Origin: Patellaria atrata CBS 101060
Taxonomy: Eukaryota
NCBI GenBank assembly: GCA_010093705.1
Contig: MU006100.1
Location: 470,745-534,744, forward strand
Length of the DNA: 64,000 bases
Direction of reading: 5' to 3'
Every line of letters starts with the position of its first letter. Within the stretch, counting starts at the first letter, position 1. Shown piece after piece: positions 3,521 through 21,709 of this stretch. The notes beneath the pieces are model-generated. The model worked only from the letters and a program-made list of their open reading frames with translations, had not been told where the DNA came from and searched no databases. The translations under genes and the position numbers were made by a program.

Positions 3521-6326
3521 TGGGCCACAATGGACAAAGAAATTGGCGGTTTTCTCATAACAGCACCACAGGAACACGATCCAGGCTCTTAGTACATGAC
3601 TGGCGGTGTAGCTTCTTCTCGCCTCATTTCCTCGCATGTGAGCGATACTTATGGAGGACAAGAGTCAAGCCCACGTTGAGGTTGTTTAGCAGATAGTTAC
3701 TCCCAGGGGCGGTATAGCAGAGTTTCAACGTAAGAGTATGGATATGTGGTCTGAAGTGGGCTCATTGGATGATGAGGTCTCCTTTTGTTCAGATAATCAT
3801 TAAAGCGTCATAGTCCTGGGTCAGCGAGACTGTGCTGGCACTTGTGAAAAATGCACTCAGGGAGTATCCGCTGAAAAAAGGCACAGGAAGCGCTCATGAC
3901 TTGTATTACGTTTATCCATTATGATAGTCATTAGTAGTTACAGAATGAATACCTTTCTCGTTATTAATGCTAGTTCTAGATCAATTGTGATATATGCTAC
4001 TCTGTCGCGGGTTTTATCCCTTCGTCTTTGCCCCTTGCTAGATCAAACATATTGTCGAGGTGTACGCATGTAAAGTCAAGATCTCGATGATCTGTATACC
4101 TCGTTTGATCATATGCATATGAGTCCTCCTTACGTTCCCTTCATCCAGTATAGCAGTGTCAAAAATAGTGGGAGTAGTGAGGGTCCAGTATGGAATCTAT
4201 ACGGATAACTTTCTTGTACAGCTGAGAGCTCCCTATATGCTCTCCAATTCTTCGTTTACTCCGCTCGAGAATGATTTGAAGAGAAAACGTACGGTATGCT
4301 TACCTATATAAGTAAGGAATTTTCAAGGGTGAGGGTTTCCCCGTACGTTCTCACGTTAGTTTGATATTGAAGTTAGAACCCTTCCCAACCGGCAGCGAAT
4401 AGTCTACTGATCTATATGGGCAGAGTATTGGTACGGCCGAGCATATGCAGTAAGCTTTCGCCTTTCTTATGACAGACTCAAAGACAACCTCACGAGTTAG
4501 CGTATAGTAGGCAGGGTGATACGCGGAGATTATGTGTCTGAAAGGGAATTGTTTGTATATTCCTGCTTTCCTTATACAACAAAGTCAAGCACAGTTTGAA
4601 AAAAGAATGTACAGTAGACGAGTTTCTAGAATTAGGTAATCTGTACGGCCATGAGTGTCTGGTACGATCTGACCTTTCCTGTACAGCAGAGTCAAATAAA
4701 GCCCTACATATGAGGATATAGCACCCGGATCTATGTTTTCAGCTTACGTGCGCGATTGGAAATTCTCTAATGTTCACGTGTTTCCTGTACAGTACAGTCA
4801 GGAACAGCGTCAATAAGGAGAGAACGGTAAGGTAGCATATCCACGACCAGGACCTTACAATATTCGGGAGTATATAAAAAATAAATCGGATGATATCTGT
4901 TGATACTATGAGCTCTGGTGAAGACTGAGTTTGACCTTGTCCTTTCAATGTATGGGTCGGAAAGGGACGAGATATCCAGGATACCAGTCAACCCATTTAT
5001 AGATACTCCACGGGGGTTATTGCAGCTATGATTCTACCATGAGTGGAGGTGTACCCTACTTTACTGAGACCCGGTTCAACTTCTCATCTCGTACGACTTT
5101 TGGGGACTATATGCCTCTCCTATGATCTTAGATGTACTCTGTACGTGTAAGTTTCTTTCCTCTTAAATCCAGTACGATTTTGTACACTCCAGTGATTGGT
5201 TAGGAGCTATGGAAGGGTATGTTTGCCTTCACCTCGAAACTGACACCCAAGAATCAAGAAGCTTTGTAAGAGAGAGATGAAAGTGCGTTTTGATTAGGGT
5301 TTTAATGCGCCGTCATTGAAGAGTAGCCAACCGTCAGGGAGTCTTTCAAACCTTAATCATTACTGTACAGTACAGAACAAGGTACGAAGTCTCTCTCCTA
5401 TATCCCTAGTTAGAGAAGAGATTTACGTAAATAAAAGTTTCCGAGTACTATTAATCAAGTAGTCAAGTCCGTTCTAGGGGTTGGAAGTGAAAGTTGCCGC
5501 CTCCTGGAACAAGTGAGGTGGTGTAGCATGGGCTGAGGCTGAACAATGCGCCTTGGCAAAAACCGCGGGAGCATCATCCGCAACATCTTGGCTTCTCACC
5601 TACAGTTTCAAAACCGCAGACGCGTGAGTTTCCCATCTCACTCCACGATAATCGATGTTATGATGATGTTTTTGATTCGTTTGACAACGAATTTGAATCG
5701 CATACTTCTACCCTGTCATGGAATGTGAGCGCCACTACAAGGCCTCCTATTCGAATCAAGCTTCATCCCGCCGTCTCGACCTGCCTTTGCGTTTTTAATG
5801 AAGTCTATCACATATTCACGGCGCTTTTTCTAAAGGAGCATCATTGATCTTGGGGGTATCGCGTTTGAGGTTATCCCCGATGGACATTCTTGGCTATTTT
5901 CAGACAATAGTGAACATGAGTCTCCACTTGGGGCGCTGGAACGGCGACAATTTCGCTATGGAGTACGCGTGGTCAGGTTGACCAACATAATCTGGCCCTT
6001 GTGGTCCCCAAAGAAGGAGTTCTGCAATGAAGATGAGGCTCCAAATGGGAAGTATAGGGTCTATTCTTGGAACACTCTATGTTTCCTTAGCAGCTGCCTT
6101 TCCTTGCTCACGTTTTCTGATTTGCTTTTCCGCCCAGCTATATACCAAAGACCGTCCTACTCACATTGCTTTCATATGGTCTATATTCGTTAGTCTAAAA
6201 AACAATCTTTCATTCTCCGTCTTGCTGCTGGCCGGATTTATCTTGCTTGCGCTGGCCGCCTTCTTGTCCATACATTTAATTGATTAACTTTATATAATTG
6301 CGCAGCATCGACATTTTCCCAACACC

Positions 6327-9300
6327 ATGATTGGAATGACTGAAGGTGTTTGTCCATTCTCTGGAGGACAGAGTACGAGGTCAGCCTCTGAAGCTGGCCC
6401 TGTTCGACGAGGACCCCGGGGATGTGCATTCGCAGGCTTCGGGGCTAATTGCCCATTACCTTCCGCATACTCAGATGTTAGTATCACTATAGCACCGCGT
6501 ATATATATCTAATCAAGTTAGGACCCTCATGAAGTTGAGAGACTTCATCTCCACGAACGTCGAACCATAAACGAAATGTTGCTACCAGAAGCACCACCAC
6601 GCGAGCTTACCAAAGGAATGAAGAATGCAGATAGCTTACCACCGGAAGATGATGCGGTTCTGGCCGTTGCTCTAGGAGCTCCTGCGCGTCGAGTCCTTAT
6701 GCGTGCTGAAGAGATAGGACCTCGTACCGGGTGGAAGGATGGCTACCTGTCCGCTACCCATGGCTTTTGTGCCCCGGATCCATCGGACTCCCCAGTCGCG
6801 CTTCGTGCATCTCCAGGACGTGTGTGGTCAGACCTTTGCGAAAGGATGCCTGGTGTCGTCGCCCGCGGGAACATGCGAAACTCAATTCTAGCTTTACCTT
6901 TGATCTATGCCACTCCGGATGTGATACCGGATCGTGCTCTTTGGGCTGCTACTGTGTGTCTTGGGATTCTAGCTAGTACATATAGGTATGAAGAACGAAA
7001 CGACGGTAGTGAGGGTATCAGTGTTACGCCGCCACCGGGAACGTTCCGCAACATAACAGGAGATGCCGATGATGAAGAGGAGGAAACAAAGGGTATCCCA
7101 AGGAATATCGCTATTCCCTTGAAACAAGCTTGTGTCCGAATGGGGAGGCCTCTTCCTCATTTGACTCAATTTGATGTTAGCATTTATAATTTTAAGATCA
7201 GGGATCCCACCAGCGTCCATCCTTATGTTGCTAGATCGGAGAATATGGACCTCAGATGGCCAGTTAGTGGCCCACATCCTTATTCAAGTAATAGTCTAAC
7301 ATAAAGGATAGGTATTCAATGACCGCGGTGAGGCTATGTTTCTTCTATGCATGGCTGAGGTTCATGGATGCTTCGTTCCCGGTGTCGAAATTGTCACTCG
7401 TTGTCAAGAAGCTGTTATGAACCGCGACAAGGAAGGTCTGCTCCGCGAAATGGTGAAGTTGAAAGCTTTGATCGATCAGTTACCATTCATCTTCCATAAG
7501 ATTAGTGTGAATCCCAATTCAGGAGAGAACTTTGCCAATCCTGTAGAGTGGGGCCAAAGGTGAGATTCAGCATAACGGATTACGAAGAACTCGTAATTAA
7601 CTTCATTAGATACGCCAAATGGTCAGCACCTCTTTCTCGGCGTGTGCCAGCACTCAGCGGGTTAGCCCTACCATTATTCCTGCTCATGGATGCCTTTCTG
7701 GGCAGAACAAAATACACTTCATTTTTGGGAATCGAAGCAGTACATCTCCGGAGATGGCTACCACTGAATATTAGAGCATTTATTGCAGCAATCGAGACAA
7801 GCTACAAGATCCCCGAATTTATCAATAACTCCAACGATTCTCGTCTAGAGGGTATTCTCGAAGGCTTGATTGAATCTTATGCCGGCGAGCGTGGATTCAT
7901 GGGCACGCATCGATACAAGGTCTACGGCTTTCTAGAAGTAGTTGCAAAAACGGGTAGAACGGAGACTAATGGTAATGCAGGAGCTGGAGATTCGGAGGGA
8001 CGGTACGTTAGATCACCCTATATGCAAAAGAACTTCCCTAACGAATGTTTAGTGCATGGGAAGAAGTTCATAGAACGCTCTCTGATTCGATGAAAGAGCG
8101 ACTTGATCCATACCGAGGCGCTGTAGCAGTTCAACCTCACGAGATGCGAGGCTCTTTTGAGGAATGCAGATTCAAAGCACGGATTCTTGAACGACAAAAT
8201 ATCGACAATGACTCCGCAAGATCCACAGGAATGGTTACTTTCGACTTACAGGGAAGTGGAATAACATTTCAACCAGGTGATCGGCTCGCAGTTATGCCTT
8301 TCAATAATGCAACTGAAGTTGATAAGATGGCTGCGGCCCTCGGGCTCGACGAGCTCATGGACGTAATCGTACCTGTGGAGAAAGGGTCCGAATGGGCTCG
8401 CTTTTCTCGACATCTAGGAGTCGTCTCTCGAGCACCTATTGCAGGCTTAACTGTTAGGGATATTCTGAAAAGGGGTCATCTTGCGCCACTTACCAAGGAC
8501 TTAGTGATGGCGTTCCATATGGCTCTTCGCGCTTCATCTCGGACCATCTTGAAAGTTTTAGCTTCAGAAGAATGGCCGGTTCCTGGGAGTGTGGGTGATC
8601 TGTTGCAAAAGGCGATTGGAGAAGTACCAGGCCCTGTTTGGGATCAAGCGTTCGAATTGGTGGATCTTTCTTGGCTTCCTAAAATGATTCCACTGGAGGT
8701 TCCTCGTACATACAGTATCTCCAACTACTCACCTGAGCTGCTACCCAGCATGATAGACCTAACAGTTTCCCGGACTGAACGGGCAATCCACCCAGCTCTA
8801 GAACAGACTGAAGGCAAGACTACATCATGTGGCATCAGCAGTGGTTTCTTGAATCCAAAGCCAAAGACAGTTGGGTATCCTACTTCTTTGAACGACGAAG
8901 GGGTCCTCATCGGCATCTCCCGCCCGATAAACTTCCAACTTCCTCCATCTACCACTGCTCCAGTAGCAATGTTCGCTGGCGGCTCAGGAATTGCACCTTT
9001 CCGTGGCTTCTGGCAGGCGCGAGTTCACAATGGAATTGGCAGGAACGTCTTGTTCTTGGGTATCCAATCCCGCGAAAAATTCGTCTATGAAGATGAACTC
9101 CGCTCGCTTGTTCAGGAGGGTTCACTCGAGCTACATCTCGCTTTCTCTCGTGATAGACGTGGGCTCGTATACGATCCAATGTCTAGAGAATTAATTGAGC
9201 GAGATATGGAACCTCATTACATTGACTCTACTATCGTTGAACAAGGACGTATCGTTAGCGAGTTGGTCATGTCGAAGAGTCAAGGTGGACAAGCTGGCTA

Positions 9301-11441
9301 TCTTTACGTTTGTGGCTCAGTTTCTGTATATGAGACTGTCATGTCGGGTATCCGGAAAGCTATCTATCAATACTCAGCTGCTACGTCTGATACTGCTGAC
9401 GCTATCCTGGCATCCGCATTCGCTGAAAGACGATTTATGCTAGGTAAGTGATTGATTCGGTCTCTCCTATCCGAATACGCTAATATAAGTAGATATCTTT
9501 ATGACACCACGTCCTATGTCCTATAAGATGCCGACAATTTCTTTATCGCAACTCGCAAGGAATACGGGTCACAGAAAGGGCTCTAGAATGTGGATCGGTG
9601 TCCATGGAGGAGTGTACGATGTAACTGACTTCCTCGACATACACCCCGGTGGTACACTCATTGTAGCTGCAAGTGCTGGACTGGACGCAACCAAAACATT
9701 CGATGATCTTGCACATACCTCCAATCCTGAGGTCTCCAGTCTCCTTTCAAAATACTTCATCGGACATCTTGCCACCAAACCGGATTTCCGCTCGCCTGAG
9801 TTGAGCGATTTGTACAATGTTTTTTATCAGTACCTAAGGACCTGTGTTGAGAGCCTAACAACGTTATTCTTTGAAGCGAACCATATCTTAGAAAATTCGA
9901 AGGTTTGGTTTCAAGGCGGATTGCTCAATATAGGAGGTGTTCGGAAGTTCTACCAGTTTCAGAGTCGATTGATGCAAAATGGTTTCTCTACGCTTTTCGG
10001 TGGCAAGCTCCAGGAAATATACCTCAAACTTTCCTTCACACTCGCTAGCGCAGGAGCACCAAATGTCCAACTGCCGGATGTCATTGGTACAATCACTCGA
10101 GCTCAGTCATCCCACGATGCCGCTATAGCCTCGAAAGAGATTTCTCAGATAGGCCAGTTCGTGTGCAACAGCAGCAAAACCGCACAGTTCCATGAGAACG
10201 GTATCATCGAATATGCTCAAGCCGTCACTGAGATGGACATCACTTTTTTGGAACACATCCGTGATGAAGTCTGTATGGGAATGGATGCATTCGACTCCTT
10301 AGCATCGATGGAAGAATCCAGTTCGCGCAAACAAGTGAAGCTATCCGCTTTCCTCCTCACTGTGCTTGAGCGCATTGCCAAACGTCTAGAGTCTTTCTAT
10401 GCATCTCTCGCTCAACAATCAATATATAGACCCGAGATAGAACTCAACCCGGCGCGTTCCCGCTGGAATATGCTACGGCGCAAGATCTTCGACGGGTCCC
10501 TCTTCATCCTTGCACAGGTTCCCCAACTCGACCATCACGACACTCGCGGCTCAATTTTCCGGCCCGGTGCTACGTCCACCGATGTTGATTTCACTCACGT
10601 CTTTGAGAGCGTGCAAAGGGCCCTCCGCGCTGATACCTCGGTCTCCTTTAATGCCATTGCTTCCGAGCCAAAGCGCCTTGCTGATGCTCATACGGCACGT
10701 GCGAACACAAACGCCAGCGCCGCAAGCACGTTCGAGACTCGTGAAAATGCAGCAGCGCTTCGCCAACTTGGCGCTTTCATCTCAGAAAACGCGTCCTCCA
10801 TTCGCCGCCTTAGCCGCATTCCCGCTGCGTACGACTTTGATCAGATCATGGCCGCGTACGGGGAGAAGTCGCCCAGCTCTCCCCACCATGTGCGCACTCG
10901 TTCCGGCCTCAGTTCTACTTCAATGCCGAGACAGAAGGTGCAGACACCGCCTTCCCAACTTTCACCACCGTTGCAGAATGGAACGCTGAACCGAAGGGCT
11001 CCTCCAGCTGAGTCGAGTCCTCCAGCTCCCCTATTTACAAATGAGAATGCCACCACAACAGCTACCACGGCACCAGCACCCCTCCACCGCCGTCAACCAA
11101 CTCCCACCTCATCGCTTCCTCAACCCAAAACTTCACCCCCTCTCCCCATTTTACACAGGCGCGCCCCTCCCTCCACATCCGTAACTTCCGCGTCCCAACC
11201 TCGTCGACAAGGATCCAATGAGTCCATGTCCTCGGCCTACCGTGCGGCGGCGTCCGTGGCTGGGAGCTTGCCAGGCACATTGGTGAGTGGAGGTGCGAAG
11301 GGTAGGGCGATGGGAGTGGGTGGACCGTTTCCAGTCCGAACTTACACGACTGCAGGACAGGGGCCTGGATTAAGGGCATTGAGGTTAGGCGCGGGTACGG
11401 GCCCTGGTGGGATAGAGAGGAAGGTTCAGGTTAGGGAATAG
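6327..11441 (+). CDS. IDO/PrnB-like heme dioxygenase fused to FAD/NAD(P)H reductase and cytochrome b5 (1623 aa)
   Basis: join(6327..6476,6522..7262,7312..7559,7610..8002,8053..9443,9493..11441), all GT-AG introns, frame preserved, 4872 nt. IDO-like motifs: IPRNIAIPL..MGRPLPHLT..YNF, LRRWLP..RAFI, FMGTHRYKV. Reductase motifs: PRTYSIS, GISSGFL, AGGSGIAPFRGF, YVCGS. b5 motif: WIGVHGGVYDVTDFLDIHPGG...DATKTFDDLAH. Confidence 0.9.
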
Positions 11442-13311: not shown

Positions 13312-16295
<2,984 letters not shown>

Positions 16296-16450: not shown

Positions 16451-17303
16451 GTGATGCGACCATTCCAAATTGGGGTCAAAGTGGTTTCTTGGCATTGAGA
16501 CTAGAATTCTACAGTAGGAGAATTTGTTCCCACCTCAGATGAAATCCAACAACCCCTTGAACCATCAAGACGACAATCGAGCCCTTGCCTATACCTTTTA
16601 AAGATCAGAAGTCATAGGTATCATCAAGGAACCAGTTATTCATGTACTTCTAGCATCTACTACATCGATGACTGACTCAATACTGAACTCTACGTGCCGT
16701 TTCCGCCTCTCCCAAACACTCGATTCTCAGACTCTCTGCTTCGATGCTACAAAGTAGTCATTCTGTTGCTAAAGGAAACTCGGTTATAAAGCAATTGTAC
16801 TTCATTATCTACTTCAAGCTTTGTGAAAAGCAGTGTCTGAGCACTAGAGAAAAGCCCCCTAGTAGTATGCATTTGCTATCCTATGTTATGGACGCAAATG
16901 ACCTGGGACACAGTACCTCTAGTATCTAGAAACAGAATATTAAAGTCCTTTGTACTCTCAGTCAACAGATCATAGAAATCCCATTATTGTCGGTTTCGTG
17001 GCGAACTTCATGCATGTTTCTGTCTCAACCCAGCAAAATAGGCGCCAGCCCATACTATGCGAATGTGTCTGCGTCTGCAAGAATAGGCCATATCCAAATA
17101 TTAGTCATTCGCTTCCTTGTGTAAGATCAGAAGGTGGGGGTCGTATTCTTGTGTCGATCATTGCTGCGGAGTTGTTGCCTGGTAACACGTGCAAAAGAAC
17201 ATAAAAGGTGAGCATATTCTTCTCACTTTTTCTCGCATTTAGTCATTGAACAAACTTCCAAAACCAAAACTTCTTCAGTCACTATTTCATCAATCTGCCC
17301 ACA

Positions 17304-19001
17304 ATGTCTACCAACGAGCATACCGAGAGCAATTATGAAGTTTTTAGCGTGTACAAGAATCGCGCGGGTGGTCCAACGCACTTCAGCGAATCAGTGGCCA
17401 TGGCTCAGGTTCGACGTACACATGAAGACTACCATGTCACCCGTGTCTCACCGGCAGCATTCGATCTCCTCGGTTTCGCTGCTGCTGGAAATGCAACAGC
17501 AAAGCTCGAAGTTGACGGCGAGTATTTCGATGCTGTCAGGTCGTATAAATCCGCGAATAAGAGTTCACTGAGGAAATCTCCACCAGCGACATTGACTGAC
17601 GTAGTCAAATTTGGGCGGTATTCGTACTCGTGGAACAACTTCGATTTCATCGTGTACCAAATTGAGTGTAATGAAGGTGGCATGCGTTCAGCCTGCCCGT
17701 TTTTCTTCGTCCTCGCGCAACGTTCCGCGGCCCCGATCGAAAATGGTCATTCCCTGCTAACTGATTCCCTTCTCCTTGAGGTTGGCAACTGGAGCACACA
17801 GCTGCATGAAGAGGTTTACGTCTTTGATAATGGCCGCTGGATGAAGAACCATGAATTATGGCAGAGTGTTGAAGGTTCCTCCTGGGATGAAGTCATTCTC
17901 GACAATGCTATGAAGGCCAAACTAATCGAAGATGTACATGGCTTTTTCGACAGCAAAGAACTTTACAAACAGTTCTCCGTCCCTTGGAAACGCGGTATCA
18001 TCATGCACGGTGTCCCCGGCAATGGAAAAACCGTCTCTATCAAAGCACTCATGAGCTCTTTGCAATCTCGCCCTACGCCTATTCCATCGCTCTATGTGAA
18101 GTCTTTAGACAACAGCAACGGTCCTCAGTATGCAATCCGTGCCATCTTCAACCTTGCTCGCTCCGTCTCTCCCTGCCTCCTCATTTTCGAGGACCTCGAT
18201 AGTCTAGTAACCGACAAATCGCGAAGCTACTTCCTAAACGAAGTTGATGGTCTTGAATCCAATGACGGAATCCTCATGATCGGCTCTACTAATCATCTCG
18301 ACAAGCTAGACGCATCTATAACCAAGCGTCCCAGCCGCTTCGATCGGAAATACCACTATCGTCTCCCTGGCGATGCTGAGCGCAAAGCATACGCTGAGTT
18401 CTGGCACCGCAAGATCCTCGACAATCCCATGGTTGACTTCCCTGAAGATATGTGTGCCGTGATCGCACAGTTCACCGCCGGGTTCAGCTTTGCATACCTC
18501 AAAGAGCTATTTATGATGTCTCTTTTAATAATCGCTCGCGGCGGCGGCGATCTCCTCAACGACGAGTTTCAGATCGGAGAATCAAAGGCTACCTCGGAAA
18601 AGGTGCAACTTGAGGACAAAGACGACGACGCTCGCACTGATATCTCCTCATCCGACGAAGTGCGTTTCATCAAAGTTCCGCATTCGGTCTCCGAAACGGT
18701 AGACGCCGTTGCCCAGGGGACTGAAAGAGTCATCAAAAGCGTCGAGGAGGGTATCGACAAGCTTGTTCACAACAAGTCCTCGCTTCCTGATGTTGACGTT
18801 CCCGATCACCTTCGTGACAATATCCTCCTCAATGTCCTTATGGTTCAGGCTAAAGCACTGTTGGCAGAGATGGACAATACGAAAGTGGATGAGTGGCCTT
18901 CCGGCAAGCCGCCGGCGAACAGCGGGATGACGCTTGCGCAGTTGAGGAGGCCGATGCGGATGGTTAGGGCGGAGAACGTACAGGCCATCAATGTGCCCTG
19001 A
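17304..19001 (+). CDS. Single-module AAA+ ATPase, fungal family
   Basis: 565-aa intronless ORF; Walker A GVPGNGKT, Walker B LLIFEDLD, sensor 1 STN, SRH RPSRFDR. Confidence 0.9.
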   Translation: MSTNEHTESNYEVFSVYKNRAGGPTHFSESVAMAQVRRTHEDYHVTRVSPAAFDLLGFAAAGNATAKLEVDGEYFDAVRSYKSANKSSLRKSPPATLTDVVKFGRYSYSWNNFDFIVYQIECNEGGMRSACPFFFVLAQRSAAPIENGHSLLTDSLLLEVGNWSTQLHEEVYVFDNGRWMKNHELWQSVEGSSWDEVILDNAMKAKLIEDVHGFFDSKELYKQFSVPWKRGIIMHGVPGNGKTVSIKALMSSLQSRPTPIPSLYVKSLDNSNGPQYAIRAIFNLARSVSPCLLIFEDLDSLVTDKSRSYFLNEVDGLESNDGILMIGSTNHLDKLDASITKRPSRFDRKYHYRLPGDAERKAYAEFWHRKILDNPMVDFPEDMCAVIAQFTAGFSFAYLKELFMMSLLIIARGGGDLLNDEFQIGESKATSEKVQLEDKDDDARTDISSSDEVRFIKVPHSVSETVDAVAQGTERVIKSVEEGIDKLVHNKSSLPDVDVPDHLRDNILLNVLMVQAKALLAEMDNTKVDEWPSGKPPANSGMTLAQLRRPMRMVRAENVQAINVP

Positions 19002-20704: not shown

Positions 20705-21304
20705 TTATCGCTCAACCCACACCAGACCTCCCTGCTGATGGCTCTTAAGTCGCTCGCTATTAGCGAGAGCATTATCCAAAGCCATGAGACTCGAGCCCAG
20801 AGAACCGTCGATATTTACGACCGGAGCAGTGTAAGCCACTTTTCCAGAGAAGATCTTCGCCTTCGGGCCCGTGAGATCCAGCACGAAGGTAGCAGCCATC
20901 TGGATATACGATTCTAACTGCGCTTGGCTGGTCCGTTCGCTCTCATCTACTTCGTTAACGCAAAGGGCATCGAGCCAGAAACACGGGGTCCAGCCGTGCG
21001 TGAGTCCCATGATCGGTTCGACGTTCTGGTCGAGGGCTCTAAGCGCGTTGGCGACGCTGGCTGGGACGCGGATGAGGTTTCCGTTGATGATTAATTCTTC
21101 TGTTTGGGTTGTATCGGGGCTCCGGATGTACTTGATGAAGAAGAAGAGGTTTACTTTGGAGGCGTCCACGGGGAAGACGGAGAACCGTTTCGGAGAGCCT
21201 GGTTTGTCTTTTCTGTTGAAGATGGGCTTGAACATGCGGGTGTCAAATTGGCTGCTGCCGAGGGGTTCAAAGACCGGGCGGATCTTGCTTTGTTTGTGGC
21301 CCAT
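20705..21304 (-). CDS. Small divergent HET-domain-like protein
   Basis: 199 aa; LIINGNLIRVPASVANALRAL and FWLDALCVNEVDESERTSQ resemble the HET core (WIDAICINQ..EK..QV); N-terminus MGHKQS. Confidence 0.65.
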   Translation of the reverse strand: MGHKQSKIRPVFEPLGSSQFDTRMFKPIFNRKDKPGSPKRFSVFPVDASKVNLFFFIKYIRSPDTTQTEELIINGNLIRVPASVANALRALDQNVEPIMGLTHGWTPCFWLDALCVNEVDESERTSQAQLESYIQMAATFVLDLTGPKAKIFSGKVAYTAPVVNIDGSLGSSLMALDNALANSERLKSHQQGGLVWVER

Positions 21305-21709
21305 GGTTGAGGATGTGGGGGAGTAGATCTTCTGGTAAAAGAATTGGTCTGCTATGCTATAGTACTGTATGTGATGTGGTACGTGCCGTGGTGTATGTTG
21401 TGATACGATTACTTTAAGAGAAGTAGATGACTTGAGAGAAAATATTTGAATTGAGAAGCGTGGCAGACGGAGAGAATTAATGGATGTATAAATAAAGCCG
21501 TAGTATAGGTAAGTAAGGTGTATTTCTATACCTTATGGATATTGGTACTGTAGAAGCCAAGCACCAAGTGAGCAAGAAGCCCCCCAGCCAAGCCATATAA
21601 CCTGCGTGCAAAGCCAATAGTACGCGAAAAGAAACGAAAAAGAAACGAATAAGGCTGGTGGGTGTGAGGCGGTGGCATTTCCACAAAGGGTACCGGCAAC
21701 GCTAAGCAT

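Follow-up and report, generated by a model that had tools for sequence, protein, structure and literature searches.

A fused indoleamine 2,3-dioxygenase-fold, CPR-type reductase and cytochrome b5 protein of Patellaria atrata: a candidate self-sufficient heme enzyme from a family shared by fungi and bacteria

To our knowledge, all studied members of the superfamily of indoleamine 2,3-dioxygenase (IDO), TDO and PrnB depend on outside reductants. A heme and an NAD(P)H/flavin adenine dinucleotide (FAD) reductase are found in one chain in P450 BM3, nitric oxide synthase (NOS) and flavohemoglobin. Nitrate reductase, Ncb5or and the b5/b5-reductase fusions lead electrons from flavin to cytochrome b5 and on to a catalytic centre within one polypeptide. 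PMC12462446 deals with a fusion of this NAD(P)H nitrate reductase, Ncb5or or fungal b5/b5-reductase kind. According to passages of PMC11791213, in vitro reconstitution of PrnB failed with many reductants tried. The gene described here lies on the forward strand of contig MU006100.1 (assembly GCA_010093705.1) of Patellaria atrata CBS 101060, within a stretch of 64,000 nucleotides (nt; positions 470,745 to 534,744). This stretch is called the window below, and positions are counted from its first letter. The predicted protein joins an IDO-fold heme domain to a reductase module of the type found in cytochrome P450 reductase (CPR) and NOS, a b5 domain and a long helical domain. An earlier sequence-only reading had proposed the order IDO, FAD/NAD(P)H module, b5, and this order was recovered by Pfam. 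The protein probably supplies its own heme with electrons from NADPH, as argued below.

The region 6200-9700 was read directly and the frames were then joined by script. Splicing gave a coding sequence of 4872 nt with zero internal stops, in agreement with the earlier proposal of five canonical introns and one intact frame of 1623 amino acids (aa). All five introns are of the GT..AG type, with branch sites like CTAAC/CTAAT. Letter for letter, the predicted protein is the same as P0001, which is listed for Patellaria atrata CBS 101060 as a 'hypothetical protein' of 1623 aa and carries the UniRef name 'NADPH--hemoprotein reductase'; the gene and its exact model are already in public databases. 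At the sequence level the locus was confirmed as one six-exon gene with a predicted 1623-aa product. The motifs listed by the sequence-only reading were found at their positions (FMGTHRYKV at 7896, HPGG at 9642, DLAH at 9705, ALSGLALP at 7650 and ETNGNAG at 7962). No RNA run was among the sequencing runs listed for the stretch; the only two listed behave as DNA, each with a contig spanning all of it including the introns, and the assembly may have been made from them.

The N-terminal domain matched the Pfam family IDO (PF01231) with 48.1 bits at aa 127-362 of P0001 (cut-off 26), and exon 2 alone gave 29.7 bits. An AF2 model of aa 51-533 was built from a 92-sequence alignment and scored 87.5 in predicted local distance difference test (pLDDT) and 0.89 in predicted template modelling (pTM). 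In a Foldseek search of the PDB the rows shown were human IDO1 and IDO2 only (best E 2.9e-12; TM 0.76-0.82 on target; about 426 columns at 15-17% identity). VIA-align, run against 48,161 representative chains, gave IDO2 a Z of 35.6 (354 residues aligned, root mean square deviation (rmsd) 2.5) and IDO1 a Z of 33.9 over model residues 52/59-483. The same two-part helical fold is thus shared with IDO1 and IDO2 over about 350 residues, at Z 34-36 and rmsd 2.5-2.6. IDO1 was also matched directly by phmmer at E 5e-8, and 25 of the 26 matches were IDO1 or IDO2. The claim of an IDO-like domain was borne out by the Pfam match and by a fold that covers the whole domain. The solved IDOs that were matched are single-domain proteins, in contrast to the fused protein of the window. 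A suggested likeness to PrnB was not upheld. The IDO-like bacterial proteins PrnB (Z 25.3 and 24.6) and Shewanella SO4414 (Z 23.6) have the superfamily fold in common with the model, but at 8-11% identity they are clearly more distant than IDO1/2, and TDO (Z 11.9 and 11.0) and MarE (Z 9.8) follow. No PrnB family match was seen in the Pfam scan of P0001 at E up to 1. Because VIA-align ranks IDO1/2 above PrnB, the domain is predicted to be IDO-type and not PrnB-type.

The candidate proximal heme ligand, His480 of FMGTHRYKV, was kept without exception in 92 fungal rows and in all 26 rows of an alignment of fungal and bacterial sequences. It lies in H-[RQ]-x-K-x-[YF]-G, one of two peptides that were picked automatically, as the most conserved, for the genome scan described below. 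The helix expected to carry the proximal ligand, by comparison with IDO1 and IDO2, contains a conserved His. His480 falls inside the structurally aligned range; phmmer aligned IDO1 up to a point 8 residues short of it. A second residue, His425 (7743-7745), was likewise invariant in the 92 fungal rows, but the bacterial consensus does not keep it. On the substrate side, the tryptophan (Trp) contacts of IDO1, which we take to be Ser167, Phe226/Phe227 and Arg231, were compared in the low-identity phmmer alignment. Cys and Gly/Glu were found at the Ser167 and Phe226/Phe227 positions, and the Arg231 segment fell within a 9-residue gap. The earlier remark that substrate-side residues are unlike those of IDO1 agrees with this alignment. 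Because the Trp-contact positions differ, a substrate other than free L-Trp is suggested.

All four Pfam families scored above their cut-offs in P0001, the other three being FAD_binding_1 (52.8 bits, aa 550-749), NAD_binding_1 (35.2 bits, starting at aa 817) and Cyt-b5 (56.1 bits, aa 1001-1067). The PDB matches of phmmer over aa 549-978 were to CPR, the sulfite reductase flavoprotein and the reductase domains of P450 BM3 and NOS. Residue-level alignments to plant CPR placed RTYSIS at the FAD motif, GGSGIAPFRGF at the NADPH motif and AFSR at the 2'-phosphate site. Pfam and these motifs thereby corroborate the CPR/NOS-type module noted earlier, which is predicted to bind FAD and NADPH. The highest Z among the b5 structures found by VIA-align was 13.0 (80 residues, rmsd 1.6), and the two His residues expected to hold the b5 heme, His1025 and His1049, were both kept throughout the fungal and bacterial alignment, as had been claimed. 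A flavodoxin/flavin mononucleotide (FMN) domain gave no Pfam match in P0001 at E up to 1, and the IDO and FAD domains are separated by about 35 aa. No Pfam match in P0001 was seen for the NOS oxygenase domain, the PDB matches to NOS being confined to the reductase part, or for the molybdenum cofactor and dimerisation domains of assimilatory nitrate reductase.

The fusion is widely distributed. A query with exon 2 found 231 longer proteins at E 1e-3 or better, and 104 of the 120 matches listed, from Ascomycota, Basidiomycota and a chytrid, carried all four Pfam domains. A second search seeded with a Pseudoneurospora homologue gave 296 proteins at E 1e-100 or better. When a profile was made from the IDO-like domain, it matched 580 cluster representatives with E values of 1e-3 or better, and 215 of these reached 1e-30 or better. 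Domain scanning of 27 of these representatives revealed IDO and b5 together with at least one reductase domain in 19. For prokaryotes, one genome per species was scanned, and at least 372 of 600 pattern matches encode relatives in a version of about 1100 aa. The best 80 bacterial loci came from Actinomycetota, Chloroflexota, Cyanobacteria, Bacteroidota, Myxococcota, Oligoflexia and Proteobacteria. Far from being an oddity, the gene is a typical representative of a very large annotated family of fungi, bacteria and a protist, and its interest lies at the level of the family, not in any peculiarity of the gene in the window. The intronless bacterial versions make experimental testing easier.

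This distribution also bears on whether a separate IDO-like gene and a reductase-b5 gene were wrongly joined in the gene model. Such an artefact is extremely improbable. The splice model is known from genomic sequence, which leaves room for it, but the frame is intact through five canonical introns and the four domains recur together in the fungal homologues. Furthermore, all 20 bacterial loci checked have the same order in one uninterrupted frame, and the spliced protein aligns without gaps to the intronless bacterial homologues across the core junctions after aa 297, 380, 511 and 974.

In a FastTree analysis of 51 rows, a quick method with a midpoint root, the fungi formed one clade with two paralogue groups, and three species had a copy in each. 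These pairs in different fungal clades are from Lentithecium (P0005/P0342), Leptodontidium (P0007/P0071) and Amniculicola (P0008/P0072). The gene of the window grouped with copies from Dothideo-, Leotio- and Eurotiomycetes. Variant architectures were also seen among the 27 representatives scanned. Five had an additional N-terminal GGACT/AIG2 domain, two, both from the protist Rhodelphis marinus, had C-terminal EF-hands, one had an added DSBA domain and one an imine-reductase-like module (the variant-architecture proteins are P0183, P0201, P0206, P0171, P0257, P0137, P0128, P0179 and P0200). The EF-hand and GGACT forms are protist variants. The added modules may hold hints to substrate or regulation.

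An internal chain from NADPH to FAD, then to the b5 heme and finally to the IDO-type heme is the best-supported reading of this architecture, and we consider it reasonably likely. It is favoured because the heme ligands and cofactor motifs are conserved, the FMN domain is missing, the domain order is fixed from bacteria to fungi and b5 is able to reduce IDO. NADPH would reduce the FAD, which would pass electrons singly to the b5 heme, so that b5 stands in for the missing FMN. The b5 would then reduce the IDO-type heme, with His480 as its proximal ligand, to give a heme enzyme that activates O2 and is self-sufficient. Enzymes that consume electrons in every cycle typically have their reductase fused one-to-one. 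Because such a fusion occurs here in every lineage and the Trp-contact positions differ, electrons may be spent at each turnover, in monooxygenase-like or NO-dioxygenase-like chemistry (NO, nitric oxide) on a substrate that is not free L-Trp. The protein would resemble P450 BM3, NOS and flavohemoglobin in its general layout, and its reductase module matches those of BM3, NOS and CPR. It differs from them in its IDO fold and predicted His ligand, being neither a Cys-ligated P450 or NOS nor a globin, and from BM3 and NOS in having b5 in the place of an FMN domain. The proposed flavin-to-b5-to-catalytic-centre layout is that of nitrate reductase, Ncb5or and the b5/b5-reductase fusions. These use a small FAD domain of the b5-reductase type, whereas the window protein has the CPR type (FAD_binding_1) and, unlike nitrate reductase, gave no match to a molybdenum cofactor domain. 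If the chain is real, it would represent a new class of self-sufficient heme oxygenase and a ready model for electron transfer from b5 to IDO.

Several points weigh against this chain. Each of its steps rests on sequence and predicted structure, not on experiment or transcript. Only positions 8-211 of the 412 in the Pfam IDO profile were matched in P0001. The equation of His480 with the proximal His of IDO1 is putative and comes from fold coverage and conservation. CPR-type FAD domains normally pass electrons to FMN, and direct transfer from FAD to a b5 heme is hypothetical in this class. The case for a substrate other than Trp derives from one sequence alignment at 16-19% identity. Finally, IDO-type dioxygenation does not consume electrons at each turnover, and the architecture would also suit a plain dioxygenase whose reactivation system is built in.

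The last point leads to the main proposal of the sequence-only reading, a true tryptophan/indoleamine 2,3-dioxygenase in which the fused reductase and b5 merely hold the heme ferrous. IDO is indeed the closest fold and the sole family match outside the reductase and b5, and several structural residues are held in common with IDO1 in the phmmer alignment. In addition, b5 as a reductant of IDO, on which that reading drew, does appear in the literature, where passages of PMC4191572 propose it as a physiological reductant. The identity to IDO1/IDO2 is only 15-19%, however, and the substitutions and gap at the presumed Trp contacts argue against Trp as the substrate. A reductase fused one-to-one would also seem to exceed the needs of occasional reactivation. 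A Trp dioxygenase is therefore considered unlikely.

The homologues bear database names such as sulfite reductase, NOS-related and nitrate reductase, all of which derive from the reductase part. The 'nitrate reductase' labels of P0034 and P0044 are mislabels, and the warning that automated pipelines could misname the protein from its reductase alone has come true among the homologues. No full-length NCBIfam model reached its cut-off in any of the five proteins scanned, for which only reductase-type models appeared, far below their cut-offs. A literature search of full texts found no paper describing an IDO-reductase-b5 fusion. The family appears to be a large one of hemoflavoproteins that is annotated but mislabelled and biochemically unexplored, and hundreds of genomes now label it sulfite reductase, nitrate reductase or CPR.

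The NOS-related names raise the question of an NO-handling enzyme, either a fungal 'NOS-like' protein or an IDO-fold analogue of flavohemoglobin active in NO dioxygenation or nitrite reduction. Homologues named 'related to nitric-oxide synthase', the matches to NOS reductase domains and the EF-hand variants of Rhodelphis all point in this direction, and a His-heme with a fused NAD(P)H reductase would mirror the layout of flavohemoglobin. On the other hand, the Pfam scan matched neither a NOS oxygenase nor an FMN domain. The fungal 'NOS-like' genes, iNOSL of Inonotus among them, were chosen by similarity to NOS reductase domains, and the literature on them, in the portions consulted, has no mention of an IDO-like domain. 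NO was reported as unchanged in knock-outs of such genes, possible members of the present family, namely NOL2/NOL3 of M. oryzae and NCU05185/NCU05006 of N. crassa (passages of PMC4948021, PMC4778047 and PMC10607626). In a table of PMC4948021, one pair of N. crassa genes is matched at E = 0 by NOL2, by NOL3 and by KP052853 (a 'NOS-like' gene of Inonotus). This is consistent with a pair of long paralogues as seen here. No N. crassa protein was found among the 120 matches listed for the search seeded with the Pseudoneurospora homologue. A review reports activity for cloned 'iNOSL' proteins (PMC10889981). Altogether an NO-handling function is judged quite unlikely. The family may still be what lies behind the fungal 'NOS-like' genes, and if so its real activity could help to settle how fungi make or handle NO.

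The b5 domain is followed by a long helical domain that was absent from the sequence-only account. In an AF2 model of aa 976-1337 (pLDDT 90.0, pTM 0.86) the b5 packs on this domain. No specific fold match was obtained for it: Foldseek returned b5 matches only, and VIA-align, over the same representative chains, gave generic helical bundles at Z of 7.5 or less. Dynein-tail-like clusters came up in the protein atlas at a recognition value below the atlas's own reliability mark, and no fold was assigned. The domain has no invariant His or Cys. A fungal and a bacterial profile aligned over 1093 columns at a probability of 100%, extending well beyond b5, and by this comparison the helical domain is part of the core conserved in fungi and bacteria. 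The disordered C-terminal tail and the Cys-containing N-terminal extension are fungal additions to the shared core. Cys-Pro dipeptides and a GPRGC(A/S)F motif are found in this fungus-specific extension. Among 112 full-length fungal homologues from P0002-P0120, the first 90 aa held two Cys-Pro dipeptides in 71, one in 18 and none in 23, and Cys33 was kept in 84. These Cys motifs are reminiscent of heme-regulatory motifs or of a small metal site.

Neighbourhoods were compared for 50 of the best 80 bacterial loci (L001-L080), the loci left out being mostly near-duplicate actinomycete genera and short contigs. Of the 50 loci, 26 had a protein of about 150 aa with tandem CBS domains next to the homologue; it was always encoded on the same strand, and upstream in 24 cases. 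This neighbour may act as a regulatory partner.

The regulatory appearance of the helical domain, the N-terminal Cys-Pro motifs, the EF-hand variants and the CBS-pair neighbour would suit an IDO-like domain that is a non-catalytic heme or ligand sensor, gating a b5 reductase whose acceptors lie outside the protein (P450s, desaturases or ferric iron, for example). Against such a sensor, conservation in the family peaks around the candidate proximal His and the loop that follows, as is typical of a catalytic heme site, and a sensor is held to be very unlikely. A broader and decidedly speculative idea, which we regard as a long shot, is an IDO-fold counterpart of NOS or flavohemoglobin. This would be an ancient NADPH-driven, b5-mediated His-heme enzyme of bacteria and eukaryotes that makes or removes a small signal (NO or an indole-derived compound). 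Its electron flow would be gated by EF-hands in Rhodelphis, by the CBS-pair partner in bacteria and by the Cys-Pro motifs and disordered tail in fungi.

Table 1. Coordinates of the gene, its parts and other features (window positions unless a bacterial locus is given)
Feature	Position	Strand	Remarks
Whole gene	6327-11441	+	six exons, five introns, 1623 codons + stop; product identical to P0001
Exon 1	6327-6476	+	aa 1-50, within fungus-specific N-terminal extension
Cys9-Pro10	6351-6356	+	
Cys33	6423-6425	+	
Intron 1	6477-6521	+	45 nt, GTTAGT..AG
Exon 2	6522-7262	+	aa 51-297
IDO-fold heme domain	6699-8119	+	about aa 110-533, spans introns 2-4; Pfam PF01231, AF2, Foldseek, VIA-align
Intron 2	7263-7311	+	49 nt, GTTAGT..AG
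Exon 3	7312-7559	+	
Intron 3	7560-7609	+	50 nt, GTGAGA..AG
Exon 4	7610-8002	+	
His480	7908-7910	+	candidate proximal heme ligand; invariant in alignments
Intron 4	8003-8052	+	50 nt, GTACGT..AG
Exon 5	8053-9443	+	
CPR/NOS-type FAD and NADPH module	8165-9503	+	aa 549-978, spans intron 5; Pfam, PDB phmmer
RTYSIS	8705-8722	+	FAD motif
GGSGIAPF	8978-9001	+	NADPH motif
AFSRD	9140-9154	+	AFSR = 2'-phosphate site motif
Intron 5	9444-9492	+	49 nt, GTAAGT..AG
Exon 6	9493-11441	+	includes stop codon
Cytochrome b5 domain	9564-9773	+	aa 999-1068; Pfam, b5 folds
His1025 of b5	9642-9644	+	kept in 26/26 rows
His1049 of b5	9714-9716	+	kept in 26/26 rows
Conserved helical domain	9795-10493	+	aa 1076-1308; AF2, aligned region in bacterial homologues
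C-terminal tail	10572-11438	+	aa 1335-1623; Ala/Ser/Pro/Thr/Arg-rich, poorly conserved
MCM3-like replication helicase gene	13391-15801	-	at least 2 exons; MCM, MCM_lid, MCM_OB, WH_MCM3_C
AAA-ATPase open reading frame	17250-18998	+	E 1.9e-16
Open reading frame with weak HET-domain match	20708-21532	-	E 1.1e-4; 23 bits (cut-off 22.5)
Tandem-CBS neighbour, example	L008:2279-2737		
Tandem-CBS neighbour, example	L012:7132-7578		
Tandem-CBS neighbour, example	L013:7152-7592		

The idea of a biosynthetic cluster around the gene was discarded. In the bacterial loci, neighbours other than the CBS protein recurred in at most 9 of the 50, and in the window the neighbours are the MCM3-like helicase gene, the AAA ATPase and the weak HET match.

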